A stretch of 20,000 nucleotides of DNA from an uncultured virus (IMG/VR IMGVR_UViG_3300042397_001885) (IMGVR_UViG_3300042397_001885); one strand, 5' to 3'; shown: positions 3,817 through 16,650, counted from the stretch's first letter. Numbers and translations: made by a program. Notes: generated from the letters alone by a model not told the origin.

Positions 3817-3897
3817 TTAGCTACCAGATAGTGTTGACAATAAGATTACTGTTATTGTAATCCAAAAGATGTATCTAGCATATTCTTTGTTACTCAT
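3817..3897 (-). CDS. Membrane micropeptide (26 aa)
   Basis: MSNKEYARYIFWITITVILLSTLSGS; AAGGA RBS upstream. Confidence 0.5.
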   Translation of the reverse strand: MSNKEYARYIFWITITVILLSTLSGS

Positions 3898-3979
3898 TTT
3901 CCTTAATCCTTGTTTTTTCAATAATTTCATCCCCCTGCCCCCTGCAAATTTTTACACTTTTTTGATTCATTGCATTCAT

Positions 3980-4008
3980 AGTATAAGAGTGTTTTTAATG
4001 CTTGTCAA
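3980..4008 (-). promoter_or_regulatory. Canonical sigma70/SigA promoter for the oxygenase operon
   Basis: TTGACA-17-TATACT on minus strand. Confidence 0.75.
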
Positions 4009-4101: not shown

Positions 4102-4162
4102 AAAATCTGAATATTTTTATATTTGCAGCTAGATCCCATTTTGAAGAAAATCTGAATATTTT
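4102..4162 (+). repeat. 16-bp direct repeat AAAATCTGAATATTTT
   Basis: Copies at 4102-4117 and 4147-4162. Confidence 0.8.
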
Positions 4163-4234
4163 GTTAAAGTGTATGATGCGTAAAAATAGAAAAAGCTCAC
4201 TTTTTTATTAGTGAGCCCATCCTATTAGATAATA

Positions 4235-4420
4235 CTAGATGAATTCGAATTCTGCAACCTCTTCACAGTTCAAACAATTGTCTAAATCTTCACAATAACA
4301 ACCGTGAAACTCTCCAGCACAATCTTGACAATAGAGAACACTCTTTGACTTTGAATTTCTAGAATTGAAAGCCTTTCCAATTCGATGTCCTTGATGTTCT
4401 AAAATTATAGAATTAATCAT
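4235..4420 (-). CDS. Small Cys-rich hypothetical protein
   Basis: 61 aa; CQDC, CYC and CLNC motifs; tightly packed operon. Confidence 0.65.
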   Translation of the reverse strand: MINSIILEHQGHRIGKAFNSRNSKSKSVLYCQDCAGEFHGCYCEDLDNCLNCEEVAEFEFI

Positions 4421-4423
4421 TTC

Positions 4424-4612
4424 TTACCCCTCTAACATTTCACAGATAACAGCACCTATGGCAGATGCTAAGCCAATAATAAAAGTAACTAGCATAACTG
4501 TTGGAGTCATCCAACTAAAGCCAATCACTAAAAGTTGTAGTTGTAGTAGTAGTGCAGGTAGTGAGAACACTGCAATGAATACTAATGGTGCAATTAGATT
4601 GTAAACAAACAT
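4424..4612 (-). CDS. Small two-TM membrane protein
   Basis: 62 aa, hydrophobic; start abuts the stop of the upstream gene. Confidence 0.7.
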   Translation of the reverse strand: MFVYNLIAPLVFIAVFSLPALLLQLQLLVIGFSWMTPTVMLVTFIIGLASAIGAVICEMLEG

Positions 4613-4738
4613 TTAGAATACCTCGTATTCGTCAGGCTCACAGATGATACAGTAACCGTTAGTTTCCCAATCGGTTAGTTTGTCACCACACTCTACACAC
4701 TTTGTAGTAGTGATGTTCTCGTATGCTAGTTCAGTCAT
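4613..4738 (-). CDS. Small CxxC-CxxC Zn-finger protein (41 aa)
   Basis: MTELAYENITTTKCVECGDKLTDWETNGYCIICEPDEYEVF; ACGAAAGGA RBS; paralogue at 6663-6800. Confidence 0.8.
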   Translation of the reverse strand: MTELAYENITTTKCVECGDKLTDWETNGYCIICEPDEYEVF

Positions 4739-4772
4739 TTTGTGACTTCCTTTCGTTTGTTTCTATGTTCTA

Positions 4773-4794
4773 AACTTAGCAGATACCACTGACA
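4773..4794 (-). promoter_or_regulatory. RecA-NDp/PafBC-type promoter 1 (leftward)
   Basis: TGTCAG-tggtatctgc-TAAGTT; matches tTGTCRgtg-N8-TAnnnT exactly. Confidence 0.8.
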
Positions 4795-4840
4795 AAATCA
4801 AGCCAGAATCGCCTTTTTTAGGTTAACATTGGGTGAACAA

Positions 4841-4986
4841 TAATTCACAGGTTATCCACAGGATCCAGGCTGCGCCCCGTTTTCCACAGGTTATCCACAC
4901 CCTGTTAAGAAGGTGTTAATGAGTCCCCATTTTCTGTGTATAAGTATGGTAGTTATGTGTATAAGTTGTTAATAAGATGTGTATAA
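4841..4986. promoter_or_regulatory. DnaA-box cluster
   Basis: TTATCCACA at 4852 and 4891; TTTTCCACA at 4880; degenerate TAATTCACA at 4841; reverse TGTGTATAA at 4935, 4956, 4978. Confidence 0.75.
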
Positions 4987-4990
4987 CTAA

Positions 4991-5006
4991 TGTGATGAGG
5001 GTCACA
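4991..5006. promoter_or_regulatory. CRP/GlxR-type binding site
   Basis: Perfect TGTGA-N6-TCACA (TGTGAtgagggTCACA). Confidence 0.6.
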
Positions 5007-5044
5007 AAAATAATTCTAAAACACCCCCCAAAAAGGGGCAAAAC

Positions 5045-5066
5045 TGTCAGACCCCTCTGCTAAGAT
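5045..5066 (+). promoter_or_regulatory. RecA-NDp/PafBC-type promoter 2
   Basis: TGTCAG-acccctctgc-TAAGAT. Confidence 0.8.
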
Positions 5067-5082
5067 GAAATCATAAAGCAGT

Positions 5083-5137
5083 TGAGAGTGAGCCTAGCAA
5101 ATAATCCCGAAAGGGTGAGCCTAGCAAATAAATCTCA
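5083..5137 (+). ncRNA. Candidate structured 5' leader with 17-nt direct repeat
   Basis: GTGAGCCTAGCAAATAA at 5088 and 5115 around a CCC-GAAA-GGG hairpin, closed by TGAGA/TCTCA. Confidence 0.55.
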
Positions 5138-5159
5138 CACAAACGAAAGGTAAACCAAA

Positions 5160-5309
5160 ATGGCTTACACTAAAATAAAAAATGCAAGACTGCTAGTAGA
5201 TGCAGTCAATGGCTTAGAGTTAATACTCAAGCACGACCCAACCAATCAACGAATGATTGACTACTACAATCTACAAATAAAACTTTTGACTAGACGTGTC
5301 TACCGTTAA
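5160..5309 (+). CDS. Hypothetical protein (49 aa)
   Basis: MAYTKIKNARLLVDAV...LTRRVYR; ACGAAAGGT RBS. Confidence 0.7.
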   Translation: MAYTKIKNARLLVDAVNGLELILKHDPTNQRMIDYYNLQIKLLTRRVYR

Positions 5310-5312
5310 AAC

Positions 5313-5334
5313 TGTCAGACCTCTATGCTAAGAT
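5313..5334 (+). promoter_or_regulatory. RecA-NDp/PafBC-type promoter 3
   Basis: TGTCAG-acctctatgc-TAAGAT. Confidence 0.8.
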
Positions 5335-5366
5335 AAAACTAATAAACGAAAGAAAGGTAAGACAAA

Positions 5367-5576
5367 ATGACTTACACTGAAATAATGGAAGAGGTAGTTA
5401 CCCCAGCAGGTAACACTTTCTACAATACCATTCGCTACTATGACGAATGCGAGATTTGCCAATCTGCTATGGCTAAAGGTGAGATGCCTTTCATCTCTCA
5501 CGATAACTGCCTATACAAGGGTAAGCGTATCATTGGTCACTCACTAGGTCACTGTACCGCAGGGAGTTGCTACTAA
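5367..5576 (+). CDS. Small Cys/His-rich hypothetical protein
   Basis: 69 aa; CEIC and H...HC...C; GAAAGG RBS. Confidence 0.75.
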   Translation: MTYTEIMEEVVTPAGNTFYNTIRYYDECEICQSAMAKGEMPFISHDNCLYKGKRIIGHSLGHCTAGSCY

Positions 5577-5707
5577 TGAATAGATGCGAAAACTGTGATG
5601 AGTGGTCAGAGTGGAAATCCTGCCCTGCCTGTGATGAATCTATCTGTGGCTATTGTGTCTACTATGTAGAGCAAGACCTAACTAGTTGCGACAGATTAGG
5701 TCACTAA
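5576..5707 (+). CDS. Cys-rich Zn-binding micro-protein (43 aa)
   Basis: MNRCENCDEWSEWKSCPACDESICGYC...; TAATG overlap with the upstream gene. Confidence 0.7.
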   Translation: MNRCENCDEWSEWKSCPACDESICGYCVYYVEQDLTSCDRLGH

Positions 5708-5711
5708 AAAC

Positions 5712-5733
5712 TGTCAGACCTCTCTGATAGTAT
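5712..5733 (+). promoter_or_regulatory. RecA-NDp/PafBC-type promoter 4
   Basis: TGTCAG-acctctctga-TAGTAT. Confidence 0.8.
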
Positions 5734-5768
5734 CAACTTAACAAACAAACAAACGAAAGGTGGTCACA

Positions 5769-5993
5769 ATGACTACACTAAACACCAAAGACTTTCTAGA
5801 GTCTTACAAGGCTTTGCACAATGCAAAGTATTCAACACTAAATGCAAATGAGCATCTTGTTCTTGCAACAATTCTAACCGTTTCTATTGAGTGGTCAAAG
5901 TCACTTGATGAGGTTCAGAAATTACTAGACAAGAAAACTCAAGAACAAAATCTTGAACTACAATTCTTCCAAAATGCAAAGGCAGGAAAATAA
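5769..5993 (+). CDS. Hypothetical protein
   Basis: ATG 5769 after GAAAGGTGG RBS; 74 aa. Confidence 0.75.
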   Translation: MTTLNTKDFLESYKALHNAKYSTLNANEHLVLATILTVSIEWSKSLDEVQKLLDKKTQEQNLELQFFQNAKAGK

Positions 5994-5994
5994 A

Positions 5995-6177
5995 ATGATG
6001 ACACGCAAAGACTACATAGCAACTGCAAAGATTTTTAATTCTTATGCAGAAGCAGGACAAGACAACCTTTTGATTTCTTCACTTGTAAAAAGTATGGTAG
6101 AAGATTTTGCAGACTTATTCGCAAATGATAATCCAAACTTTGATGAGCAAAGATTTCTAGATGCGGTAGGTGTGTAA
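5995..6177 (+). CDS. Hypothetical phage protein (MTRKDY...F..DNPNFD..RF type)
   Basis: Start reassigned to 5995, directly after the upstream stop; 60 aa. Confidence 0.8.
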   Translation: MMTRKDYIATAKIFNSYAEAGQDNLLISSLVKSMVEDFADLFANDNPNFDEQRFLDAVGV

Positions 6178-6329
6178 TGAGATTTGCACATAGCAAAATT
6201 GACGGTACTTTCGTAATTGGAATTAGTTTTTCAAATTACTACAATTCAAAACTAGGTTACAAAAATACTTCCCTGATTTTTGACTTAGGAAAACATTCAG
6301 TAGCATTTATTTTTAGAGGTGAACACTAA
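6177..6329 (+). CDS. Hypothetical protein (50 aa)
   Basis: MRFAHSKIDGTFVIGISF...; TAATG coupling at both ends. Confidence 0.65.
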   Translation: MRFAHSKIDGTFVIGISFSNYYNSKLGYKNTSLIFDLGKHSVAFIFRGEH

Positions 6330-6403
6330 TGAATAGTTTTTATTCTTGGGTATTTATTTTATCTATTGCAACTCTATTTTTTTTAGCAGGACAGGAAAAA
6401 TAA
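6329..6403 (+). CDS. Membrane micropeptide (24 aa)
   Basis: MNSFYSWVFILSIATLFFLAGQEK; GAGG RBS and TAATG coupling. Confidence 0.5.
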   Translation: MNSFYSWVFILSIATLFFLAGQEK

Positions 6404-6404
6404 A

Positions 6405-6470
6405 TTGGAAGCAATTTTAATTATTGCAATTAGTTTAATTCTAGTTTTGGTTTGGAGTTTTACAGATTAG
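6405..6470 (+). CDS. Membrane micropeptide (21 aa, TTG start)
   Basis: MEAILIIAISLILVLVWSFTD; AGGA upstream. Confidence 0.4.
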   Translation: MEAILIIAISLILVLVWSFTD

Positions 6471-6475
6471 AAATC

Positions 6476-6505
6476 TCCTGGGGTGTTTTTCATTCCAGGA
6501 TTTTT
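6476..6505 (+). terminator. Intrinsic terminator
   Basis: TCCTGGGGTG-TTTTT-CATTCCAGGA followed by TTTTT. Confidence 0.6.
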
Positions 6506-6516
6506 CCTGCGCCCCG

Positions 6517-6559
6517 TTTTCCACAGCTTGTCCACAGGTCTTTAAGAAGGTGTGGATAA
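6517..6559. promoter_or_regulatory. DnaA boxes
   Basis: TTTTCCACA 6517, TTGTCCACA 6528, reverse TGTGGATAA 6551. Confidence 0.7.
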
Positions 6560-6615
6560 GTCCCCAAGTTTTGTTATAAGTTTGTTACATAAGACACGCC
6601 CTTAAATACCAAAAT

Positions 6616-6637
6616 TGTCAGACCCCTATGATAGGTT
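6616..6637 (+). promoter_or_regulatory. RecA-NDp/PafBC-type promoter 5
   Basis: TGTCAG-acccctatga-TAGGTT. Confidence 0.8.
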
Positions 6638-6662
6638 ATAACTATAACGAAAGAGGAAAAAG

Positions 6663-6800
6663 ATGACTGAATTAGCATTTGAAAACGTAACCAAACTAAA
6701 GTGTGAATCTTGCAATGATAAACTAACCCCTTGGGAAACTAGACTTTGCATTCTTTGCGATAATGAATCTGAACAAGAATTTGAATTTGATGATGAGTAA
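6663..6800 (+). CDS. Small CxxC-CxxC Zn-finger protein (45 aa), paralogue of 4613-4738
   Basis: MTELAFENVTKLKCESCNDKLTPWETRLCILCDNESEQEFEFDDE; GAGG RBS. Confidence 0.8.
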   Translation: MTELAFENVTKLKCESCNDKLTPWETRLCILCDNESEQEFEFDDE

Positions 6801-6803
6801 AAT

Positions 6804-6825
6804 TGTCAGACCTCTATGCTAAGAT
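6804..6825 (+). promoter_or_regulatory. RecA-NDp/PafBC-type promoter 6
   Basis: TGTCAG-acctctatgc-TAAGAT. Confidence 0.8.
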
Positions 6826-6855
6826 AATCCTATACCTACAAACGAAAGGGACACT

Positions 6856-7107
6856 ATGTTCACTTTGACTAATCCAATGAAAGTGATGAATGACCGTTAT
6901 GTCGTTACATCATTACCTTGCCCTGATTGTGGCACAACCAAAACAGTTTCTATCTCATCACAACAATTATTTGCATATAATCAAGGTGCTTATTGTCAAG
7001 ATGTATTGAAAGACTATGATGCAGGTATTCGTGAACGTTTCATTTCTGGAATGTGTGACGATTGTTTTTGCACTATGACTAATTTTGCTAACTGGAATGA
7101 GGAATAA
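6856..7107 (+). CDS. Zn-ribbon hypothetical protein
   Basis: CPDC...RERFISGMCDDC; 83 aa. Confidence 0.8.
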   Translation: MFTLTNPMKVMNDRYVVTSLPCPDCGTTKTVSISSQQLFAYNQGAYCQDVLKDYDAGIRERFISGMCDDCFCTMTNFANWNEE

Positions 7108-7109
7108 AA

Positions 7110-7415
7110 ATGGGACTAAACTTTGCAACTGAATTATCAACAACGGATACTATGCCAATTGAGCAACAAATTAATATCCACTTGCAGTATAACTTCTACC
7201 CTCCAGTACCATCGTCAATGGTACAACCTTGCATAGATGCTATCAATGCTTATTGGAATGAAGATATCTATGCTGAAATAGAAATGCCACAAGGAGTTTC
7301 TTATCGTGGTAGTAACTATGCACCTGCTCACGCTATCGTTGAGCAACATCGTTTGGATCCTTGGTTGGATACTGATGACTACTATGAAGAATATGAATAT
7401 CAGGATATGGAGTAA
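7110..7415 (+). CDS. Hypothetical phage protein
   Basis: 101 aa; HLQYNFYPPVP motif; GAGG RBS. Confidence 0.8.
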   Translation: MGLNFATELSTTDTMPIEQQINIHLQYNFYPPVPSSMVQPCIDAINAYWNEDIYAEIEMPQGVSYRGSNYAPAHAIVEQHRLDPWLDTDDYYEEYEYQDME

Positions 7416-7419
7416 ATAA

Positions 7420-7530
7420 TTGTTTGAAATAATTTCTATAATTATTCTTGCACCATTCATAATAGTTCCGTTGTTAGGATTCATAATTGGAATGATGACT
7501 TCTAATGATGATGGTGATCCTAAATGGTAA
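7420..7530 (+). CDS. Membrane micropeptide (36 aa, TTG start)
   Basis: MFEIISIIILAPFIIVPLLGFIIGMMTSNDDGDPKW; GGAG RBS. Confidence 0.55.
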   Translation: MFEIISIIILAPFIIVPLLGFIIGMMTSNDDGDPKW

Positions 7531-7619
7531 TAAGGCTTGACAAGCCCAGCGAAAGCTGCGCCCTGTGGATAACCTTGTTATCTAATTGTTATTAAGATGA
7601 CTTGAAAAAACCACCAAAT

Positions 7620-7641
7620 TGTCAGACCTTTATGGTAAGTT
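7620..7641 (+). promoter_or_regulatory. RecA-NDp/PafBC-type promoter 7 (leaderless transcript)
   Basis: TGTCAG-acctttatgg-TAAGTT; ATG 6 nt downstream. Confidence 0.8.
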
Positions 7642-7647
7642 TATCTT

Positions 7648-7788
7648 ATGAAACAAAGTGAGAACTACAAACTACCTGCAAGCCCTGAACAGTTGAGGGC
7701 TAGACTTGAGTTGCGTAGAAGCAATGCAGCCGTACCTCACAGAAATAAAAAGGCTTACACACGAAAGACTAAGCACAAGGAATGGTAA
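7648..7788 (+). CDS. Small basic protein with ArfA-like C-terminal motif (46 aa)
   Basis: MKQSENYKLPASPEQLRARLELRRSNAAVPHRNKKAYTRKTKHKEW. Confidence 0.7.
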   Translation: MKQSENYKLPASPEQLRARLELRRSNAAVPHRNKKAYTRKTKHKEW

Positions 7789-7791
7789 AAA

Positions 7792-7813
7792 TGTCAGACC
7801 CTTGTGATAAGAT
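7792..7813 (+). promoter_or_regulatory. RecA-NDp/PafBC-type promoter 8
   Basis: TGTCAG-acccttgtga-TAAGAT. Confidence 0.8.
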
Positions 7814-7841
7814 AAATCTACCTACAAAGAAAGAGAACCAA

Positions 7842-7964
7842 ATGTCAGATACAGAATTAATCAAAGATTTGTTTGAGGGTGTCATTGATGATAATGCCCT
7901 TGCAAAATTATCTAAAGAAGAATTAGATGCAATTAACAAAATGCTAACGGAAGCAGGTTACTAA
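7842..7964 (+). CDS. Small acidic helical protein (40 aa)
   Basis: Start reassigned to ATG 7842, downstream of promoter 8. Confidence 0.7.
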   Translation: MSDTELIKDLFEGVIDDNALAKLSKEELDAINKMLTEAGY

Positions 7965-7965
7965 A

Positions 7966-8304
7966 ATGGGTGCAAGAATTAATTTCGTATTTGATGACGG
8001 AACAGAAGCATTGACCGTTTTGTATTCACACTATGGGGAATACACTTGGCAAGATGATTTAGCAGGTGCATTAGACCACGCTAAACCACGTCACGGAGAC
8101 CATTCATACTTTACCCGTATGGTTATCTCACACTTGATTCAAGATGCTATCCTAGCCCCAACAGGTTTTGGTATCTATGCAATTAAGCGTGATGAGATTT
8201 CAGAGATGTGGGATAAAGTAGTTGTAATAGATTTAGTTAATAATCTAGTTACTGATTTAGACAATAGCAATTCAATTCCATTTTATTCGGAGGTGTTAGT
8301 ATAA
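7966..8304 (+). CDS. Hypothetical phage protein
   Basis: 112 aa; MGARINF...LYSHYG...DHSYFTRM. Confidence 0.8.
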   Translation: MGARINFVFDDGTEALTVLYSHYGEYTWQDDLAGALDHAKPRHGDHSYFTRMVISHLIQDAILAPTGFGIYAIKRDEISEMWDKVVVIDLVNNLVTDLDNSNSIPFYSEVLV

Positions 8305-8453
8305 TGGGACAAATGAAAACAATTGAAATGATTCTAATGGAAAATCATCCCAATGGAATTTATAATGAAGATGATGTATGGGAAGCCATTGCAGAAGCAA
8401 CTGGTATGGACTATTCAGAAATTGCAGATGGAGATTTGGCGGAATGGCTATGA
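8304..8453 (+). CDS. Small acidic protein (49 aa)
   Basis: MGQMKTIEMILMENHP...LAEWL; GGAGG RBS; TAATG coupling. Confidence 0.7.
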   Translation: MGQMKTIEMILMENHPNGIYNEDDVWEAIAEATGMDYSEIADGDLAEWL

Positions 8454-8587
8454 AATTATTTAATAGAAAACCAAAAGAAAGAAATGTAATCTATGCTGAT
8501 ACATTTAGTTACTTAGATAAGTTGATGAGTGAAATGGCATCTACTGAAATTTACATTGAATACCTGCGAGAAAGGGAAAAGGCTTGA
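8450..8587 (+). CDS. Hypothetical protein (45 aa)
   Basis: ATGA overlap with the upstream stop; MKLFNRKPKERN... Confidence 0.65.
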   Translation: MKLFNRKPKERNVIYADTFSYLDKLMSEMASTEIYIEYLREREKA

Positions 8588-8693
8588 AAAAGCTGCGCCC
8601 CATTTTGATCCACTTGTCAAGTATTTACGAAGTGATTAAGGACACACCGAAAAGTGTCCACATAGTGAGATTATAGCGTGTCGGATTTGGAAA

Positions 8694-8715
8694 TGTCAGT
8701 CATTTCTGGTATAGT
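8694..8715 (+). promoter_or_regulatory. RecA-NDp/PafBC-type promoter 9
   Basis: TGTCAG-tcatttctgg-TATAGT. Confidence 0.75.
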
Positions 8716-8761
8716 AGGTACTACAACAAGGGAACAATCCCACAAAAGAAAAGAGAAGCAA

Positions 8762-8920
8762 ATGGCAAAAATCACAGCCCCAACTGTTGGCTCACAGTTC
8801 ACCACAGCAAAAAGCAAGGTTACTGGCGAAGTTCAGGAAGTAGTTAAGAACGCAAACGGTTCATACCGAGTTCGTCTTGACATTGACGGTCAGCCACGCT
8901 GGACTACTTTAACTAAGTAG
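8762..8920 (+). CDS. Small beta-rich (SH3/KOW-like) protein (52 aa)
   Basis: MAKITAPTVGSQFTTAKSKVTGEVQEVVKNANGSYRVRLD...; start reassigned downstream of the promoter. Confidence 0.75.
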   Translation: MAKITAPTVGSQFTTAKSKVTGEVQEVVKNANGSYRVRLDIDGQPRWTTLTK

Positions 8921-8946
8921 TTTTAGTTAGGGGGTCTGGCTAAAAC

Positions 8947-8968
8947 TGTCAGACCCCTATGCTAAGAT
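8947..8968 (+). promoter_or_regulatory. RecA-NDp/PafBC-type promoter 10
   Basis: TGTCAG-acccctatgc-TAAGAT. Confidence 0.8.
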
Positions 8969-9000
8969 TACTTTATACCTACAAAAGAATGGAGTCCCCA

Positions 9001-9477
9001 ATGGGCTTAGATATGTACCTTCGTGCAAGTGAATATGTGTACCGTCACAACTTTAATCGTCAGACGGATGAGGACACAATTAACCCAATCTTTAATGAGA
9101 TTGTTAAGAATCTTGAATTAGAAAATGTTATTGATAGTTCTGGCTTTGCTGGAATTACTGTTGATGTACCAATGGGCTATTGGCGTAAATCAAATATGAT
9201 TCATCATTGGTTTGTAAATAACTTAGCAGATGGTGTTGATGAATGTCAGCCAATCATTGTTCGTAGAGAAGATTTAGAACAGTTGAAAGAAACCTGTATT
9301 GAAGTAATTGCTAATCCAGAATCAGCAGAAGAATTATTGCCAACAGGTAGTGGATTCTTCTTTGGTTCAACAGAGTATGATAAGTATTACTTTGGAGATT
9401 TGAACGATACTGTTGGTATCATCACTAGATGCCTTGATAGTAAGTTCGACTATTTTGAGTACCAAGCCTCTTGGTAA
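9001..9477 (+). CDS. Conserved phage protein of unknown function (MGLDMYL...YWRKxNxIHxWF type)
   Basis: Start at ATG 9001 after GGAG; ends YQASW. Confidence 0.85.
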   Translation: MGLDMYLRASEYVYRHNFNRQTDEDTINPIFNEIVKNLELENVIDSSGFAGITVDVPMGYWRKSNMIHHWFVNNLADGVDECQPIIVRREDLEQLKETCIEVIANPESAEELLPTGSGFFFGSTEYDKYYFGDLNDTVGIITRCLDSKFDYFEYQASW

Positions 9478-9559
9478 GGTAACTCAATAATTAAAAGGTA
9501 GCCAATACCGCCAGGTTGTTGGTGATTGAATGAAAAGATATAAATCCTGGCACAAGCTT

Positions 9560-9636
9560 GGTCTGGTGGCTCAGTTGGTTAGAGCACCGCCCTGTCACGG
9601 CGGAGGTCGTGGGTTCAAGTCCCATCCAGATCGCCA
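9560..9636 (+). tRNA. tRNA-Asp(GTC), CCA encoded
   Basis: Acceptor GGTCTGG/CCAGATC; D arm GCTC/GAGC; anticodon arm CCGCC-CTGTCAC-GGCGG; TTCAAGT loop; G-CCA end. Confidence 0.97.
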
Positions 9637-9711
9637 AGCTGCGCCCTGTTATCAAATCGTTATATAAAGCTATTAAGAGACACACAGATATCTGCCAGTT
9701 TAAGTTGAAAT

Positions 9712-9733
9712 TGTCAGACCCTTGTGCTAAGAT
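9712..9733 (+). promoter_or_regulatory. RecA-NDp/PafBC-type promoter 11
   Basis: TGTCAG-acccttgtgc-TAAGAT. Confidence 0.8.
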
Positions 9734-9766
9734 AAGACTATTAAACAAACAAACAAAGGAAACAAA

Positions 9767-10756
9767 ATGGCAGATGCAGTTGAAGTTATTAACGGTGTGG
9801 GCTCTATGTATTCATTTCGTGAACCTGCTTGGCATGGTCTAGGAACTGTTGTTACAGAAGAACACACTACAAGTGAAGTTATGGACATAGCACACTTATC
9901 AAATTGGAATGTACGTCTTGAAGATGTTCAACTACCTGAAGATTACACATCAAGCAAATCTAACTTTCTTGTTGTTCGTGACCACCCAGAAGACGGACAC
10001 CCAGATGTTCTAGCAGTTGTTGGTGAACGATACCAAACTTTACAGAATGAAGAACTATTTGCTTTTGCAGATAATCTTCTTGACGGTGCTCGTTGGGAAA
10101 CTGCTGGTTCTCTAAAGAATGGTCGTGTTGTATTTGGTTCTCTTGCTCTTGAGCGTGAAACCGTACTTGACCCAAGTGGAGTTGCAGATGTTGTGAAGTC
10201 TTACTTACTTGTAAACACATCACATGACGGTTCTCTTGCTGTTCGTGCATCTGTTACACCTGTTCGTGTTGTGTGTGCTAATACTCTTGACATGGCTCTT
10301 CGTGGTGTTAAGCAGTCTTTCAAGATGCGACACACATCAACACTTGAGGGTCGTATTCTGGTTGCTCGTGAAGCATTGGGTCTTGCTAATACTTACATGG
10401 ATGCTTTTGACAAAATGGCTCAAGAACTTATTGAAAAGGAAATCACAAAAGATACTTTTAATAAGATTGTTGAAAAGGCTTATCCAATGCCAAGCAAAGA
10501 TGCTAAGGGTGCTATGACTAAGTGGGAAACCAAAATTGAATTGTTAGATGAGATTTTTGCATCAGATACTAATTCAATGATTAACAATACCGCTTGGGGT
10601 GCTTTCAACACATTGACTGAACGCCTTGATTGGTATCGCTCTGCCCGTAATGGCAACAACGAGGGAATCCTTGCAAGTGCATCAGGCTTTGACCCAGTTA
10701 TCACAGCAGAAAAAAACAAACTACTTTCCATTGTGAAAGAGGTTGCCTTCGCCTAG
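9767..10756 (+). CDS. DUF932 domain protein (phage/plasmid-like, TIGR03299-type)
   Basis: REPAWHGLG, WETAGSLKNG, YLLVNTSHDGS, TPVRVVCANTL and TAWGAFN motifs. Confidence 0.9.
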   Translation: MADAVEVINGVGSMYSFREPAWHGLGTVVTEEHTTSEVMDIAHLSNWNVRLEDVQLPEDYTSSKSNFLVVRDHPEDGHPDVLAVVGERYQTLQNEELFAFADNLLDGARWETAGSLKNGRVVFGSLALERETVLDPSGVADVVKSYLLVNTSHDGSLAVRASVTPVRVVCANTLDMALRGVKQSFKMRHTSTLEGRILVAREALGLANTYMDAFDKMAQELIEKEITKDTFNKIVEKAYPMPSKDAKGAMTKWETKIELLDEIFASDTNSMINNTAWGAFNTLTERLDWYRSARNGNNEGILASASGFDPVITAEKNKLLSIVKEVAFA

Positions 10757-10814
10757 TAGGATAAAATCTGAACGGAAGAGACTCTCATCACACAGAGTAT
10801 AAAAATAGGTGAAA

Positions 10815-10844
10815 TAGACCTGAGCATGTCTAAATAAACTGCTC
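10815..10844 (+). ncRNA. Mini H-type pseudoknot motif copy A
   Basis: TAGAC-CTGAGCAT-GTCTA-AATAAAC-TGCTC. Confidence 0.65.
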
Positions 10845-10915
10845 CCCATTCTGGGCGCAGCCTGGATCCCAGCTCCTCGTTTACGATTAAGGTGGGGTAG
10901 AAATACCCCCAAAAT

Positions 10916-10937
10916 TGTCAGACCTCTGTGCTATGAT
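10916..10937 (+). promoter_or_regulatory. RecA-NDp/PafBC-type promoter 12
   Basis: TGTCAG-acctctgtgc-TATGAT. Confidence 0.8.
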
Positions 10938-10968
10938 GTAATCATAACCTACTAAGAAATGAGACACA

Positions 10969-11742
10969 ATGCCAAACTGGGTATTTAATAGTTTAGTTGT
11001 ATCTGGTGAACAATCAGAATTAGATAAGATGGTTGAACAATTAAATCAACCTTTTGAAAAGCATTTTCCTAATGCAGAATACAATAAAGAATTAGAAAAG
11101 TGGGAACACTTTCCAGATACCCAAATTTATTCTAATCCTGTCTTTGCTTTTTGGAACATTGTAAAACCAACAGACCTTAAGTCATACTATGGTGAAGAAG
11201 TGTTTAAGAAAACTAATCTTGCCCCTGAAGAATTTATGACAGAGTTTGTTCGCTCTATGAAAGAAGACCAAGACTGGTATCACTGGAACTGTCGTAACTG
11301 GGGAACTAAGTGGGACGTAGCAGTAGATGATAAGTCTGAATGGTCAGAAACTCGTATCACTCTTAATGATGATGGCTCTGTTATGTATCATTTCAATACT
11401 GCTTGGTCTCCTGTTGGCGAGGTTTTAATTAAACTATCAGAGATGTATCCAACTCTTGAATTTGACTATGAGTATGAGGAAGAGCAAGGCTGGGGTGGCA
11501 GTTGCACATTCTTGGGTGGAAAAGAGATTGCCTCTAATGAGTATGACACTCCAATGTCTCACGCTGACTACAAGGCACTAGAAAGAGAGTGCCAATGTGA
11601 ATACAATGACGTTGAGTATGCTTTTGAAGATTGCCCAATGGATACCACTAAATTTAAGTGGGATTCAGAACTAGAGGAATGGGTAGAATTGTCAGACCTC
11701 TCTGATACACTAGTTTCAACAACCAACCTACAAGGAGAATAA
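10969..11742 (+). CDS. YubB/DUF1281-like ferredoxin-fold domain protein
   Basis: MPNWxxN start; WYHWNCRNWGTKWD and FNTAWSP motifs. Confidence 0.8.
   Translation: MPNWVFNSLVVSGEQSELDKMVEQLNQPFEKHFPNAEYNKELEKWEHFPDTQIYSNPVFAFWNIVKPTDLKSYYGEEVFKKTNLAPEEFMTEFVRSMKEDQDWYHWNCRNWGTKWDVAVDDKSEWSETRITLNDDGSVMYHFNTAWSPVGEVLIKLSEMYPTLEFDYEYEEEQGWGGSCTFLGGKEIASNEYDTPMSHADYKALERECQCEYNDVEYAFEDCPMDTTKFKWDSELEEWVELSDLSDTLVSTTNLQGE
11690..11711 (+). promoter_or_regulatory. RecA-NDp/PafBC-type promoter 13 (inside the 3' end of the CDS)
   Basis: TGTCAG-acctctctga-TACACT. Confidence 0.75.
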
Positions 11743-11743
11743 A

Positions 11744-12238
11744 ATGGAATTCACAAGAAGCGAACCAACATTTGCTAAAGAACTAATAGAAGCAGGGGAC
11801 ATCAAGCCTATCTATGACCCAAAGGCAACCATTGTTGTCCGAAAGGGTTACTACTATGGCACACCATCAGATTCAAAGTTTGACTTAGAAAATGCAGACG
11901 ACATTTCCAGAACTTACTGGAGGCTAGATGCACTACAAGAAACTAACAACCGTAACTCAAGGGCACAAGACAAGTTAAAAGATTATCTTGTTGAGAACTT
12001 TGATGAGATTGGCGAAGAACACGCAACTGAAATTGCAAACATCTTTGGTATTGACTTGTCTAAAGAAGTTGAAGTTGAATTCAATGTAACAATTAAGGCA
12101 ACAGTTTCTATTCCTGTCAATGAAGATGCTTCTGATTTAAGTGTCTATGACTTTGACATCACAATCGAATCAAATGAATCTAAGTATGAGATTCAAGAGT
12201 TTGATGCAGACATTGATTCAATAGATGAAAGATACTAG
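11744..12238 (+). CDS. Acidic hypothetical phage protein
   Basis: 164 aa; AAGGAG RBS. Confidence 0.85.
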   Translation: MEFTRSEPTFAKELIEAGDIKPIYDPKATIVVRKGYYYGTPSDSKFDLENADDISRTYWRLDALQETNNRNSRAQDKLKDYLVENFDEIGEEHATEIANIFGIDLSKEVEVEFNVTIKATVSIPVNEDASDLSVYDFDITIESNESKYEIQEFDADIDSIDERY

Positions 12239-12261
12239 GTTTATCTAGTAGGTAGGTAAAA

Positions 12262-12287
12262 GTGCTGAGCATCACGTTAAACTGCTC
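12262..12287 (+). ncRNA. Mini H-type pseudoknot motif copy B
   Basis: GTG-CTGAGCAT-CAC-GTTAAAC-TGCTC. Confidence 0.6.
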
Positions 12288-12373
12288 CTTCAAGCTGCGC
12301 CCCCATTTAATAAGTCTATTAGTCTTAGAACATGATTAAGAAGACTTAAAAACACCCCCAAGCCGTGCAAAAA

Positions 12374-12395
12374 TGTCAGACCTCTGTGGTAGGAT
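12374..12395 (+). promoter_or_regulatory. RecA-NDp/PafBC-type promoter 14
   Basis: TGTCAG-acctctgtgg-TAGGAT. Confidence 0.8.
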
Positions 12396-12425
12396 ACAAA
12401 GTATCAACCTACAAAAGGACAAAAA

Positions 12426-12596
12426 ATGATTGACACAACAGACCCACGACTAAGTGAGTTAGCAGACCACTTTGTTGAATTACATAATGTTGGTGGTATT
12501 GAATTAGAACAATGGGATACCGCCTATCAGTTTGTAAAACATTTTTATAACACAGAAGAAATGGTTCAAATAGTTATTAGGGAGAAAAAGGTATGA
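12426..12596 (+). CDS. Hypothetical protein (56 aa)
   Basis: MIDTTDPRLSELADHF...; AAGGA RBS; ATGA overlap with the next gene. Confidence 0.7.
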   Translation: MIDTTDPRLSELADHFVELHNVGGIELEQWDTAYQFVKHFYNTEEMVQIVIREKKV

Positions 12597-12850
12597 CTTA
12601 TCTAGTAGCAACAACAGAGATTATTTATTCAGAAGAAGCATTAATTAAAATGATGTTAGCAACAGGTGAGTATGGTATTCATGGTTATCCTATTAGTCAT
12701 GAGGCTATGATTGAATTTGTTAAAGATCAAGAATGGCAGATAGAACATAATTTATTCCTTGACAAATTTGATGTACCTGCACAGATTAGCATTAAAGATG
12801 AGGACGGTACAGATTTATTCTTTGCCAAGAACAGACTGGAGATAGTGTAA
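12593..12850 (+). CDS. Hypothetical protein
   Basis: 85 aa; coupled operon. Confidence 0.75.
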   Translation: MTYLVATTEIIYSEEALIKMMLATGEYGIHGYPISHEAMIEFVKDQEWQIEHNLFLDKFDVPAQISIKDEDGTDLFFAKNRLEIV

Positions 12851-13095
12851 TGAAACTAAGAGGAATCTTTGAGGGAACTTTTGAATCAGTATGGAGTATG
12901 GACGTACCTGATCAACTATGGAATTTGTATTTACTACACAACCCTGACTTTGACGAAAATGACCGTGACGACATTCAGGAGATGTGGGAGCATTTTAAGA
13001 GTGAGGGTTGTTATGATGAGATTGACGACACAGTAGACACAGATGTAGTAATGACAGGTATAGAAACCTATGGAGTAGAAGTGGAGATTAACTAA
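12850..13095 (+). CDS. Highly acidic hypothetical protein
   Basis: 81 aa; TAATG coupling. Confidence 0.75.
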   Translation: MKLRGIFEGTFESVWSMDVPDQLWNLYLLHNPDFDENDRDDIQEMWEHFKSEGCYDEIDDTVDTDVVMTGIETYGVEVEIN

Positions 13096-13283
13096 TGGAT
13101 TTGTATAATTATAGTGTAGAGTTTGTATTAGAACGTATGGTAATTATTACAAGTGTTCAACTAAATGAGCCAGACTTATCTGATGAGTTTATTATTGAGG
13201 AAGCAAAGAATACCTTAATGGACTATTATAAGATTGACCCCGAAATTATGTATCTACAAGATGTAATCGTACACGAGGTATAG
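13095..13283 (+). CDS. Acidic hypothetical protein
   Basis: 62 aa; TAATG coupling. Confidence 0.75.
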   Translation: MDLYNYSVEFVLERMVIITSVQLNEPDLSDEFIIEEAKNTLMDYYKIDPEIMYLQDVIVHEV

Positions 13284-13285
13284 TA

Positions 13286-13396
13286 ATGACTAATGAATTA
13301 ACTCTTGATGAAGTATTAGATGTTATTAATCAAATGAAAGATGAGGGTAATTATCATAATCCTACCCTTGACGAACTGGAAGATAGGTTACAGTAA
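13286..13396 (+). CDS. Small acidic protein (36 aa)
   Basis: MTNELTLDEVLDVINQMKDEG...; GAGG RBS. Confidence 0.6.
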   Translation: MTNELTLDEVLDVINQMKDEGNYHNPTLDELEDRLQ

Positions 13397-13524
13397 TGTT
13401 AATGGATAAAGTAAAATGCTGTATGTGTGAGGCTGTATCGTTTGTAGACTTATGGGCTGATGATTGTCCAGAATGTAATAAAACTGGTTATCTTATGGAC
13501 ATAGAACAGGAAGTAGAAGTATGA
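13396..13524 (+). CDS. Zn-ribbon micro-protein (42 aa)
   Basis: KCCMC...DCPEC; coupled at both ends. Confidence 0.65.
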   Translation: MLMDKVKCCMCEAVSFVDLWADDCPECNKTGYLMDIEQEVEV

Positions 13525-13757
13525 GTTACGAATATCATTGGGTAGTTGTTTATGATGAGGATTGGGGAGCTTTCATGGTTGATGTAGAAACAACAATGAT
13601 AAATATGGCAGACCACCCTGGTCTTATTTATAATAAAACTAGTGGACGTTGGGAAGATGATCTAAAAGAGGGTTCAGAACTAGAAACTGAATACCAGAGG
13701 CTAGAAGAAGTCTTGGCATATCAACTAACAAGACTTGACATTCCAAAGAAAGTTTAG
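13521..13757 (+). CDS. Hypothetical protein
   Basis: 78 aa; ATGA overlap. Confidence 0.75.
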   Translation: MSYEYHWVVVYDEDWGAFMVDVETTMINMADHPGLIYNKTSGRWEDDLKEGSELETEYQRLEEVLAYQLTRLDIPKKV

Positions 13758-13763
13758 TAGGAT
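13735..13763 (+). promoter_or_regulatory. Canonical SigA promoter, leaderless
   Basis: TTGACA-17-TAGGAT; ATG 6 nt downstream. Confidence 0.7.
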
Positions 13764-13769
13764 ACGACT

Positions 13770-14204
13770 ATGAAAACATTAGAAGGCGTAACGGTAGAAT
13801 ACACACAGACAATCCCTACAAGTAAGCAGATGCCAGAGTTTTATGTGTGGCAGGAGGGTGCAGAGTCTTATGCAACTATCACATACTTGGACCGTGTGGT
13901 AGAGATTGAACGTAATGGTGAGATGAGTCTATCACTACCAAACTTAGTTAATGGTGAACTATCTGATGAAGGTGTCACTATTGTGAGATACTCTGACGAC
14001 TTAGAGGCTGCAGGTATCAACGATGACATTCAGTTGATGCAGTTTATTAAAACTATTAGCAATAGTGGATTTGAAGTTTATCGTATGAATCCTTGGTGGG
14101 AAGTGTTTGCACACAATGAAGATATGGGTGAAGTGTATGACACATTCTACGAAGCAATTGATGCTGGTATTGACCACATTATAGACGACCAATGGTGGAA
14201 CTAA
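13770..14204 (+). CDS. Acidic hypothetical protein
   Basis: 144 aa; NPWWE motif. Confidence 0.8.
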   Translation: MKTLEGVTVEYTQTIPTSKQMPEFYVWQEGAESYATITYLDRVVEIERNGEMSLSLPNLVNGELSDEGVTIVRYSDDLEAAGINDDIQLMQFIKTISNSGFEVYRMNPWWEVFAHNEDMGEVYDTFYEAIDAGIDHIIDDQWWN

Positions 14205-14359
14205 TGGATACAGCAATTAATAGATTTATTAAACATACCATAGCCAACCTTGAGGGGGCTTTGGAAAAAGATGAGCCGCAACTAACGTGGGCTGTTCTAA
14301 AGAATCTATCAAGTGTGATAGAATCCTATGTGGAGGCGATTGAACTTGAGCGACTATGA
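14204..14359 (+). CDS. Hypothetical protein (51 aa)
   Basis: MDTAINRFIKHTIANLEGALEK...; TAATG coupling. Confidence 0.6.
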   Translation: MDTAINRFIKHTIANLEGALEKDEPQLTWAVLKNLSSVIESYVEAIELERL

Positions 14360-14549
14360 AATATATGACTATGTAATAGTTAACTTTGTAGAGCCTGGAG
14401 ATTTAATTAATTTTGCAGGTGGAGACTTTAGAGTGTTAGAAATAGAACCAACAGAAGATGGTTGGATCCTAGAGGTATTAGATCGTATGGAAGATCAAAT
14501 AGATTTATTTGTTCCAGACGGTGAAGTAATAGCCTTATTAGAAGAATAG
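14328..14549 (+). CDS. Small SH3-like beta-barrel protein (start uncertain)
   Basis: VEPGDLINFAGGDFRVLEIE pattern. Confidence 0.65.
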   Translation: MWRRLNLSDYEIYDYVIVNFVEPGDLINFAGGDFRVLEIEPTEDGWILEVLDRMEDQIDLFVPDGEVIALLEE

Positions 14550-14551
14550 AT

Positions 14552-14580
14552 TTGACAACCCTGTCAAAAAATGGTAAGAT
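14552..14580 (+). promoter_or_regulatory. Canonical SigA promoter
   Basis: TTGACA-17-TAAGAT with extended TG. Confidence 0.75.
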
Positions 14581-14610
14581 AAATACAAGGTAACTCTTAA
14601 GGAGAGAACA

Positions 14611-14772
14611 ATGACAAGAGAGCAAATGCGTACTCTGAAGAAGCAACGTTTCACATCACTTGAAAAGTGGGGAGACACAGAACGTGTAGTAATTCGTGAC
14701 GGTCTAGGACATTTTATCCACAACGTCAATCTAACATCACTACGCCGTAACAAGGTAGTAAAGTCCCGTTAA
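14611..14772 (+). CDS. Small basic protein (53 aa)
   Basis: MTREQMRTLKKQRF...IRDGLGHF...; AAGGAG RBS; own promoter and terminator. Confidence 0.75.
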   Translation: MTREQMRTLKKQRFTSLEKWGDTERVVIRDGLGHFIHNVNLTSLRRNKVVKSR

Positions 14773-14785
14773 GGCTGGCTGGAAG

Positions 14786-14813
14786 GGGGCAGGGAAGGTC
14801 CTTGCCCCTTTTT
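14786..14813 (+). terminator. Intrinsic terminator
   Basis: GGGGCAGGGA-AGG-TCCTTGCCCC followed by TTTTT. Confidence 0.75.
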
Positions 14814-14834
14814 GTCAGACCTCAATGATAGAAT
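14813..14834 (+). promoter_or_regulatory. RecA-NDp/PafBC-type promoter 15
   Basis: TGTCAG-acctcaatga-TAGAAT. Confidence 0.8.
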
Positions 14835-14843
14835 GGGAACACT

Positions 14844-15059
14844 ATGGGAAAAACACCAAACGAGAAAATAGCAGATAAGTTGATTGCCCTATTTTCAGAC
14901 AGTAGAATCGGAATCGTAGATTGGCAACACTACATTCCATTTTACATCACACAGCAAAACTATCACGTTATTGCAAATGCTAAAAATCTGGCAGACGGAA
15001 TAAATGAACAACTTGCTGACAATGAAATCGGGCTAAGCAAAGAACAGTTAGGAAAATAA
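14844..15059 (+). CDS. Hypothetical protein
   Basis: 71 aa, directly after promoter 15. Confidence 0.75.
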   Translation: MGKTPNEKIADKLIALFSDSRIGIVDWQHYIPFYITQQNYHVIANAKNLADGINEQLADNEIGLSKEQLGK

Positions 15060-15355
15060 TGTTAGACACAAGAGAAAAAGCAGAAATCATTTTTGAGTTT
15101 ATCAATGGGTATAGAAGTGATGAAGCCTTTGAAGATTTCTTTTCATACAATGATTTAGGCGTACCAATGTCAGTAATGATTGTAAATGAATTAGTTATTC
15201 TAACAGACAAGGGTCTACAAGTAATTGATGAGACCTGGTTGGAACTTTGTTCGGTTCTAAATAATGCTGACCCAAACTATGACTACCAAGACCTTGATGA
15301 ACTAATTGAAATGGCTGTTCCTTTTGAAGATCAAGCAGACTTAGAAGATGAGTAA
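15059..15355 (+). CDS. Acidic hypothetical phage protein
   Basis: 98 aa; F..YNDLG.P and IDETW motifs. Confidence 0.8.
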   Translation: MLDTREKAEIIFEFINGYRSDEAFEDFFSYNDLGVPMSVMIVNELVILTDKGLQVIDETWLELCSVLNNADPNYDYQDLDELIEMAVPFEDQADLEDE

Positions 15356-15455
15356 ATGGGATAGCAGAGAACCATACACAAATGTTGGAACTGGAATAAT
15401 TGGTGGATTTATGTCTATCTTATTATTCTTTATTTTGATATCAGCAATTTTTTAA
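15348..15455 (+). CDS. Membrane micropeptide (35 aa)
   Basis: MSKWDSREPYTNVGTGIIGGFMSILLFFILISAIF. Confidence 0.55.
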   Translation: MSKWDSREPYTNVGTGIIGGFMSILLFFILISAIF

Positions 15456-15461
15456 ATTGTT

Positions 15462-15538
15462 GGGGTGGTAGCTCAGTTGGTTAGAGCCCTGAACTCATAA
15501 TTCAGTAGTCGTCAGTTCGAGCCTGACCCACCCCACCA
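15462..15538 (+). tRNA. tRNA with CAT anticodon (elongator Met or Ile2), CCA encoded
   Basis: GGGGTGG/CCACCCC acceptor (paired 1-72, so not initiator); CTGAA-CTCATAA-TTCAG anticodon arm; TTCGAGC loop; A-CCA end. Confidence 0.95.
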
Positions 15539-15646
15539 AGTGGGCGCACACAAATTTAATTTTGTCAAATAAGATTAAGAACGACCTTTTAAATCGCCCA
15601 TTTTTCAATATTTTTAAAATCAAGGAAGAGAGAGTATAATAGTATT

Positions 15647-16174
15647 ATGACTATAGTAATTGGACTCATAGATAATGGTATTGTCTATATGGGATCAGAT
15701 AGAGGTATGTCTGATGAATATTCTATATCTTCTCCTATTACCCCGAAAATAAAAAAGAATGGACAATTCTTAATTGGTTATGCTTCTTCAAGGGGATCTG
15801 GACAAGTAGCTCATTATATTGATTTTCCTAATGTAGTTAAAAAGGATGTAGATAAATATATGAGAACAGATTTTATTCTTACCCTGAAAAAAGCTATAGA
15901 TCCATATGGTATTGATATATCAGATGATGACAAAGCTGCTGCAGATTTTTTGGTGGGAATTCATGGAAGATTATTTAATATATCTACTAATGACTGGCAA
16001 GTAAATGAATATGATAAATATACAGCTATTGGATCTGGTAATAGTTTTGCAATAGGATCATTAGATACTTCATATACCTGGAAAGATCCTATAAAGAAAA
16101 TAAAGACAGCTTTAGATAGTGCTATAAAGAATTCTCCTCAATGTGATTATCCAATAGATATTTTACATTCTTAA
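15647..16174 (+). CDS. HslV/proteasome beta-type Ntn-hydrolase (Thr protease)
   Basis: N-terminal M-T-IVIG, GSD and AIGSG motifs; TATAAT 6 nt upstream of ATG (leaderless). Confidence 0.85.
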   Translation: MTIVIGLIDNGIVYMGSDRGMSDEYSISSPITPKIKKNGQFLIGYASSRGSGQVAHYIDFPNVVKKDVDKYMRTDFILTLKKAIDPYGIDISDDDKAAADFLVGIHGRLFNISTNDWQVNEYDKYTAIGSGNSFAIGSLDTSYTWKDPIKKIKTALDSAIKNSPQCDYPIDILHS

Positions 16175-16650
16175 AAAGGATTACGAACCCCCTAAATATG
16201 CCCCCAGTTTTTGCGGGGGATAAATATTCCTGGCATCAATATTACCTATATAACTATATATAAGAATCTTTAAAAAAGATTACGAAAGGGCTTAAAAAAT
16301 GCCCAAAATATATGATTATCTTTTAAAATGTATATAGAATTTGCCAGAATATAAACACACCATATATACAAATTTGACATTACGATTAAGATGTGGTATG
16401 CCCCCTCACCCATATATCTCCACTATACTCCATTTCTATCCATTTTAATCCAATATATATCATATAGATTAGCCAGACATAGTTATATTATGCTATTTAA
16501 AGGCTCTATAAGCCATTCTAAGAGACTTTCTTCTGGTTTATATAATCATATGCGAAGCATCATTTATTATGTTTATATAGTCTATTAGTTGTATATATAG
16601 TTATTGTTATATAGGTAATAAGGGTATATCATTTACTTCCCCCGCAAAAA
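16169..16650. other. AT-rich non-coding region between convergent genes, with repeats
   Basis: Degenerate ~38-bp direct repeat at ~16169 and ~16268; TTACGA at 16181, 16280, 16380; 13-bp inverted repeat at 16208-16220 and 16638-16650. Confidence 0.6.

Follow-up and report, generated by a model that had tools for sequence, protein, structure and literature searches.

Composite units between early-gene cassettes

The window studied here is a stretch of 20,000 nucleotides from an uncultured virus (IMG/VR IMGVR_UViG_3300042397_001885), in which small early genes are separated by intergenic units with a short GC-rich core. Eight GCGC sites were found in the window (4872, 6509, 7558, 8595, 9641, 10855, 12297 and 15544) and no others, which agrees exactly with the first-pass annotation of the sequence. 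All eight sites are non-coding, as had also been noted (P ~8e-5, with 31% of the window non-coding), and the intervals between successive sites are 1637, 1049, 1037, 1046, 1214, 1442 and 3247 bp. The sites proved genuine and mark conserved units at the boundaries of small early-gene cassettes, the order being tRNA-Asp, a DUF932 cassette (9641-10849), an Api92-like cassette (10899-12291) and the segment from 12367 onward.

Read 5' to 3' on the + strand, a unit consists of a transcript-end former, a GC-rich core of 9-11 nt, about 20 nt of unit-specific boxes, which include GTTATC-type half-sites and some full DnaA-box 9-mers, the word TTAAG(A), a C-rich box and a promoter (Table 1). A/T-rich repeats of the TTAAGAA type lie between the boxes and the promoter, and the gap to the promoter is variable. 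Seven of the eight units follow a hairpin or a tRNA, while unit 1 lies in the divergence region, so that the earlier description of units following a transcript end or the divergence point holds. The transcript-end formers are tRNA-Asp, tRNA-Met, the terminator-like hairpin of unit 2 and the GAGCA...TGCTC hairpins of units 6 and 7; GAAA-loop mini-hairpins stand 5' of the cores of units 3 and 4. In the window, the distance from the transcript-end former to the core is within ~8 nt.

The core reads GCTGCGCCC at six sites (inverted at 10855), CCTGCGCCCC at 6509 and, as an inverted partial copy, GGGCGCACA at 15544, and TGCGCCC is present in all eight units. The 17-mer GGATCCAGGCTGCGCCC at 4861 does recur as a reverse copy at 10853-10869. 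The TTAAG words start 33, 33, 34, 41, 32, 32, 39 and 31 nt 3' of the eight GCGC sites, just as first reported, and in 200,000 draws of eight random positions not even four of eight were reached; in unit 6, TTAAG stays + oriented though the core is inverted. TTAAG(A) often appears as TTAAGAAgtTTAAGAA in relatives, and the C-rich box is CCCCCAA in the window, CCCCTGAA in lineage B and CACTGAAA in lineage C. The ~20-nt segment after the core is unit-specific yet conserved at orthologous positions, with GTTATCAAATCGTTAT upstream of DUF932 and, at other units, TGTGGATAAC or GTTATCCACA. When 82 distinct direct and 13 distinct inverted units, drawn from 14 loci, are taken together, the information content has a sharp peak on aGC(C/T)GCGCCCC only.

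The PafBC motif is given as tGTCgg(N10)tA(N3)T in PMC8635444. With the same bipartite layout, TGTCRG-N10-TANNNT occurs at 15 sites in the window against 0.29 expected, and 14 of them are on the + strand. Nearly all of these + strand promoters (13 of 14) carry exactly TGTCAGACC, a word absent elsewhere in the 78.5 kb of merged sequence described below. Seven of the eight units lie 61-173 nt upstream of such a site, which bears out both the promoter geometry and the distance of 60-175 bp proposed at first. Unit 8 has no TGTCAG promoter; there, TTTAAA-16-TATAAT (15613-15640) precedes an HslV/proteasome-like peptidase gene (15647-16174, PHROG E-value 6e-16) directly 3' of the unit. Besides, a terminator-like stem overlaps a promoter at 8925-8955, the box at 8947 forming the 3' arm of a hairpin (GGGGTCTG...CAGACCCC). 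In unit 4, TTGTCA-N17-TAAGGA (8614-8642) overlaps a GTGAT...CAC near-palindrome, and relatives have GTGAT-N4-ATCAC at the equivalent place; the pair looks like a conventional promoter with an operator.

Predicted folds contained no RNA hairpin that consistently includes the core, which is unpaired where the upstream hairpin is strongest, and the core does not form the GC stem of an intrinsic terminator before a T-run. The only + strand terminator adjoining a unit in the window is 6476-6500, upstream of its core. Rfam gave nothing over any unit, with only two tRNAs passing the threshold. No GAAC-N4-GTTC, the actinobacterial SOS-box-like palindrome, was found in the window. In lineage-B relatives, such palindromes lie just 5' of one or two cores (L024 4312, 5470; L026 2887, 3952; G002 9218), with the full TCGAAC-N4-GTTCGA form at L024 5470 and L026 3952; we take them to resemble the actinobacterial LexA box.

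Table 1. Coordinates of the units and associated features in the window, and core forms by locus
Feature	Position	Strand	Description
Putative collapsed direct terminal repeat and early region	4150..15700	.	~11.5 kb, all 8 units inside; from contig breaks, depth and BE analogy
Fifteenth promoter	4773..4794	-	TGTCAGTG...TAAGTT, leftward from the divergence point, same geometry
Unit 1	4861..4909	+	divergence region; core GCTGCGCCCC 4869-4878; DnaA boxes TTATCCACA at 4852, 4891; TTAAG 4905
Unit 2	6506..6546	+	core CCTGCGCCCC 6506-6515, 5 nt past hairpin 6476-6500 and T-run; TTAAG 6542
Unit 3	7555..7596	+	mini-hairpin CAGC-GAAA-GCTG (7544-7555), core GCTGCGCCC, TGTGGATAA and GTTATC half-sites; TTAAG 7592
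Unit 4	8592..8642	+	mini-hairpin GCTT-GAAA-AAGC (8581-8592), core GCTGCGCCCC; TTAAG 8636
Unit 5	9638..9677	+	core GCTGCGCCC 2 nt past tRNA-Asp (9560-9636), then GTTATCAAATCGTTAT; TTAAG 9673
Unit 6	10851..10891	+	inverted core GGGCGCAGC 10853-10861 in inverted 17-mer (copy of 4861-4877), 8 nt past hairpin 10822-10844; TTAAG 10887
Unit 7	12294..12340	+	core GCTGCGCCCCC, 6 nt past hairpin 12267-12287; TTAAG 12336
Unit 8	15541..15579	+	inverted partial core GGGCGCACA, few nt past tRNA-Met (15462-15538); TTAAG 15575
14 TGTCAG-N10-TAnnnT promoters	5045..14834	+	starts 5045, 5313, 5712, 6616, 6804, 7620, 7792, 8694, 8947, 9712, 10916, 11690, 12374, 14813
Core GCTGCGCCCC			window, L014, L017, L020
Core GCCGCGCCCC			L015-L021 and L024-L028, except L017 and L020 (under GCTGCGCCCC)
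Core GCCCGCCCC			L022, L023
Core GGCATGCCC			L029
GGCCCGGC-type cores			L063, L055

Core uniformity, palindrome avoidance and cassette order in relatives

To compare the units with those of relatives, we used 52 loci from viral contigs obtained by a DUF932 search. At orthologous units the flanks stay homologous, whereas the core is uniform inside a genome and different between genomes. The core variants differ by single changes made in every unit: the A and B forms by T versus C, and the B and C1 forms by a 1-nt deletion. The orthologous units of L022/L023 and L029 have cores free of GCGC, so GCGC itself is not essential. The pattern is replicated in G002, a complete lineage-B genome of 101,664 bp (including a 123-bp end overlap), in which CGCGCC is present at 10 of 10 units and all 10 CGCG sites lie inside cores, within one span of 11.3 kb. 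Direct and inverted cores stand at 6:2 in the window, 7:2 in L015 (inverted at 2933 and 4453), 9:0 in L028 and 7:3 in G002.

The units had been described as regularly spaced. A cassette scale of ~1-1.5 kb is indeed kept in relatives, but the near-exact spacing of 1037-1049 bp is not seen in those of lineage A (859, 1105 and 1074 bp in L017; 978, 1278 and 1050 bp in L020), and a strict periodicity of ~1045 bp was rejected, since relatives do not keep it.

A virus record (G001, 72,942 bp) covers window 5556-20000 with 100% identity, giving a merged sequence of 78,497 bp. In this merged sequence the eight cores are the sole GCGC sites (0 versus 18.5 expected with the cores masked), which supports the view that GCGC is otherwise absent; only in the merged sequence is this absence significant, for in the window alone the count of 8 is what a dinucleotide shuffle gives (8.6 expected) and unremarkable by itself. 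Other palindromes are absent as well, such as GGCC (0 versus 56), CCGG (0 versus 16) and CGCG (0 versus 6), and the most depleted tetranucleotides are nearly all palindromic. CATG, GTAC, ACGT and TCGA are strongly depleted, and GCATGC, GGTACC, GACGTC and CCTAGG are at zero, in the merged sequence and in G002, where GGCC (0 versus 71) and CCGG (0 versus 29) are missing too. The absence of GCGC outside the cores, together with that of GGCC, CCGG and CGCG, therefore points to a general avoidance of restriction-type palindromes, to which the cores are the exception. The idea that the purge marks GCGC as a word recognised by the phage itself was rejected, because only the palindrome GCGC is depleted and the other, non-palindromic sub-words of the core are near expectation (CGCCC 13 versus 12.6; GCCCC 36 versus 32.8).

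The DnaA-box 9-mer TTATCCACA has five copies in the 78.5 kb (4852, 4891, 6551, 7564 and 14714), all of which are in the early region, and four of the five are at most 45 nt from a core. In distant relatives, dense, origin-like clusters of 4-8 DnaA boxes were seen (L062 6734-6830; L064 9268-9371; L030 14847-14902).

The cores coincide with changes of cassette order. In 12 loci of lineages B and C, the DUF932 and Api92-like cassettes are reversed in order, and homology breaks at the cores 9641, 10855 and 12297, with lineage-B homology starting exactly at 9641. In total, six of the eight cores are inside a rearrangement junction. Of the suggestion that the units are cassette-recombination joints, the part concerning the swap breakpoints thus stood, while a similar number of junctions has no unit. 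Judging from these comparisons, the units are recombination joints, though not the sole ones.

Conservation of the unit reaches from uncultured lake phages to cultured Streptomyces phages of the BE cluster, which makes it open to bench work. In Angela, the gaps between small genes of the repeat consist of a terminator hairpin, the near-palindromic 15-mer core (T)GTCCGGsCCGGACA 0-4 nt on, and then a promoter. The promoters of the Angela repeat (L066, 1-13000) differ from the TGTCAG type in having the form CTTG...N17...TAGACT, and a conserved leader, ATCGAAAGGGAG, lies downstream of them; additional cGGACAt half-sites lie alongside the core. Among the products of the Angela terminal repeat are an Lsr2-like protein and two proteins with ParB-like nuclease domains. 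No description of the unit was found in the literature on BE-cluster phages and Stanwilliamsviridae, in a search at listing level.

A putative terminal repeat and the identity of the phage

The cores are confined to 10.7 of 78.5 kb here and to 11.3 of 101.5 kb in G002. Three lake-water DNA runs have contig breaks at 4138-4167 and 15686-15715, and in these runs the perfect-match contigs inside ~4138-15715 have about 1.5-2 times the depth of the flanks (39-47 inside versus 25-27 outside in X1, 55-85 versus 26-35 in X2, and 25-33 versus 16-18 in X3). The contig depth hints that the span of ~11.5 kb may be a collapsed direct terminal repeat holding the early genes. Direct terminal repeats of ~11 kb have been described for BE1 phages (PMC5764925). 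In BE relatives, DUF932 lies 1-2.5 kb from the genome end and is found in two copies per record, and the repeats also hold the core motif. For instance, 54 of 62 motif matches in Angela (at most one mismatch) are in the two copies of its 11,179-bp terminal repeat. Some apparent joints, with sides of 20-38 letters, were set aside because they match the promoter consensus in variant strains.

The phage is a lake siphovirus and a distant relative of Streptomyces cluster-BE phages. These are its nearest cultured relatives, with amino-acid identities of 51% for DnaE and 53% for DUF932, and no near-identical phage was present in the phage collection searched. The public runs that contain the stretch are mostly labeled as lake water (24 rows from 20 studies), seven of which hold at least half of the sampled words. 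A crAss-like identity with virion-RNA-polymerase promoters was ruled out, as the 3135-aa protein is a tape-measure protein and the polymerase is of DnaE type. The host is probably actinobacterial, to judge from the BE relatives and the promoter type; an assignment of the host phylum from a host-like dehydrogenase gene was given up as uninformative, with just a 38% match to an unrelated metagenome-assembled genome.

A freshwater RNA-library run (X24) contains contigs ~90-93% identical over parts of 9756-14732, which cover DUF932 and several early genes, and over 18838-19105, with next to none over window 1-4000. This may be a faint trace of early-region transcription in a related strain; DNA carry-over is possible too, and the contigs do not prove transcription.

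What may act at the core

Promoter early stem-loops (PeSLs) of T4-type phages are described as intergenic composites in which a terminator-like stem-loop is combined with an AT-rich stretch and a strong early promoter (PMC4122927; PMC2839356). Like them, the units are repeated composites in a hyperplastic block of small orphan genes, at breakpoints of cassette insertion, deletion or swap (PMC4122927; PMC2839356). Both an intergenic composite of stem-loop terminator and early promoter and a location at breakpoints of cassette gain, loss or swap between relatives were found in our data. However, PeSLs have a sigma-70 promoter with -35 and -10 boxes, whereas the units use TGTCAGACC 10 nt from a -10 hexamer (a -26 box/-10 layout of the PafBC type), and they belong to T4-like myoviruses rather than to a siphovirus related to Streptomyces BE phages. 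The units also add a sharply conserved, genome-specific and invertible GC core, often outside the stem, and their array lies in a putative terminal repeat.

The cores also recall the stoperators of Cluster A mycobacteriophages, reported as genome-specific, orientation-biased motifs (PMC6550527). Both are short, asymmetric, intergenic actinophage sites, mostly in one orientation to transcription, uniform within genomes and different between them. Unlike stoperators, which are spread genome-wide in temperate phages and bound by a known immunity repressor, the sites here number 8-10 and lie in one region of ~11 kb.

We put the probability at roughly 40% that the units are boundary cassettes of the PeSL kind, in which the core is a lineage-specific, stoperator-like recognition site and also a crossover point. 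The composite units would split the early region of ~11 kb, probably a direct terminal repeat, into transcription cassettes of ~1-1.5 kb, and the core would be recognised by a sequence-specific protein of the phage or the host. Once bound, this protein would act as a marker or insulator where each early unit begins, akin to stoperators or plasmid operators. Because the core is the only sequence common to all boundaries, it could double as the crossover point for a PeSL-like shuffling of cassettes. In favor of this reading, the cores retain palindromes that are purged from the rest of the genome, and the near-palindromic 15-mer of Angela resembles the operators of dimeric proteins. Since cores are inverted in place (10855 and 15544 in the window; 2933 and 4453 in L015) and not consistently paired, recognition of double-stranded DNA is favored over an RNA structure.

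Several points weigh against it. No DNA-binding or nuclease domain passed the Pfam cut-off in 33 early or neighbouring open reading frames (ORFs), and PHROGs named no DNA-binding protein, repressor or integrase among 75 ORFs; most early ORFs match no protein family. In lineages A, B and C1, the cores lack palindromic symmetry. The A form is without the CGCG of the B form, and the 1-nt deletion from B to C1 removes both CGCG and GCGC, so the uniformity within a genome could have come from recombinational homogenisation or parallel restriction escape. Half of the + strand promoters (7 of 14) have no unit at all, some standing directly after a terminator, which indicates that the unit is required for neither promoter activity nor termination. 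Roughly half of the ~18 junction clusters are at promoters without a unit or at plain gene boundaries. Lastly, the repeat status depends on coarse contig depth, which co-occurring strains could also raise.

The alternative that survives best, which we nevertheless regard as unlikely, is that the core acts purely in cis, with no dedicated protein, as a GC clamp or terminator arm (polyC and T-run) that ends or pauses upstream transcription, and that PeSL-like recombination among units and restriction-site avoidance keep it uniform. It fits with the (N)TTTT that follows most cores, with the pairing of several lineage-B and L028 cores to an upstream G-run (L028 1692, 3444; L015 5162, 6227) and with the core of L029, where GGGGCATGCCCC and TTTTT make a small terminator. 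PeSL stem-loops often have polyG followed by polyC (PMC2839356), GC-richness is independent of orientation, and the changes that separate the A, B and C1 forms remove CGCG and/or GCGC. However, the terminator scan of the window gave no + strand terminator-like site including a core, two units are directly 3' of tRNAs, and the core is unpaired where upstream hairpins are strongest (window 6509; L022 3639, 9864; L029 4336). Moreover, a generic clamp could do without 100% identity over 8-11 nt in 7-10 units whose flanks diverge by 10-25%, and a homogenised tract of ~12 nt is short for gene conversion.

We consider it quite improbable that the cores are programmed nick sites of the T5 type, at which a phage nickase would cut one strand per core in virion or replicating DNA; such nicks might help the DNA to recombine or to enter stepwise, allow the terminal repeat to be duplicated, or provide PafBC with single-stranded DNA (ssDNA). 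The T5 major-nick consensus is given as 5'-R/GCGCRGG-3' (PMC3517423). The complements of the cores agree with it at 8 of 8 positions at 6509 (G/GCGCAGG), at 7 of 8 in six units and at 6 of 8 at 15544, but a match at three of the four remaining consensus positions is not rare once GCGC in a GC-rich 10-mer is given. In T5, the repeat nick (9748/9749) maps to the non-coding injection-stop region, where hairpin GGGCAATTGCCC is followed by TGCGC|TTTT, a layout that the units share, and the nick sits within a 10.2-kb terminal repeat holding the pre-early genes. The similarity extends to DnaA-box 9-mers, a non-coding element of hairpin, CTGCGC and T-run, and a repeat of ~10-11 kb (putative here) that carries the earliest genes, and the resemblance between core and nick sequence appears real but short. 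PafBC has been reported to be activated by ssDNA, including gaps (PMC11804915), and nicks would also account for the cores as recombination joints.

On the other side, 2 of 8 cores are inverted in the window and 3 of 10 in G002 (7 direct), so the sites are not confined to one strand. The nicks of T5 are known from one strand. In phage tf, one strand carries all 14 nick sites (PMC3517423). Orthologous units in L022/L023 and L029 have no GCGC, and T5 has 56 GCGC in 12 kb, so its recognition needs context beyond this word. T5 does not avoid GCGC, its record annotates one major nick in the repeat as opposed to 8-10 evenly distributed sites here, and no sequence similarity was detected between the phages. 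An HNH endonuclease was rejected as the partner of the core, for the only HNH gene seen is missing from the complete relative G002.

It is very improbable that the cores serve the DNA metabolism of the terminal repeat, as Chi-like exonuclease stops, replication initiation sites or concatemer processing sites. The motif is largely in the terminal repeat of Angela and in the putative repeat here, the last unit (15544) is inverted and ~150 bp from the putative repeat boundary, and DnaA-box 9-mers adjoin the cores, with dense clusters of such boxes in distant relatives. Like Chi sites, the core has one G-rich strand. Nevertheless, the lineage-B array starts with an inverted unit and contains both orientations (L015), so there is no consistent polarity toward the ends, and transcription is suggested by the tight placement of the cores before promoters and after hairpins or tRNAs (at most ~8 nt in the window, 0-4 nt in Angela). 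A site-plus-enzyme system in the terminal repeat of a lytic phage, in which a lineage-specific nickase or recombinase would cut the cassette boundaries, allow integron-like exchange and, through ssDNA, switch on the downstream PafBC-type promoters, is a long shot.

The host-takeover module of Bacillus phage SPO1 is a terminal redundancy packed with short early operons, each of which has a strong promoter and a terminator of its own, and the putative terminal repeat studied here likewise holds many short early operons. We know of no shared genome-specific GC core described at the SPO1 operon boundaries.

In conclusion, the cores show that a short functional site is able to persist while restriction-type palindromes are purged throughout the genome. 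Should the core prove to be a recognition site, a specificity factor would be organising early transcription across a large actinophage group. As a nick site, the core would instead provide a second, comparable system for the long-unexplained nicks of the T5 type, regularly placed by promoters. Either way, the fast-evolving "host-takeover" genes of these phages are packaged as exchangeable cassettes.

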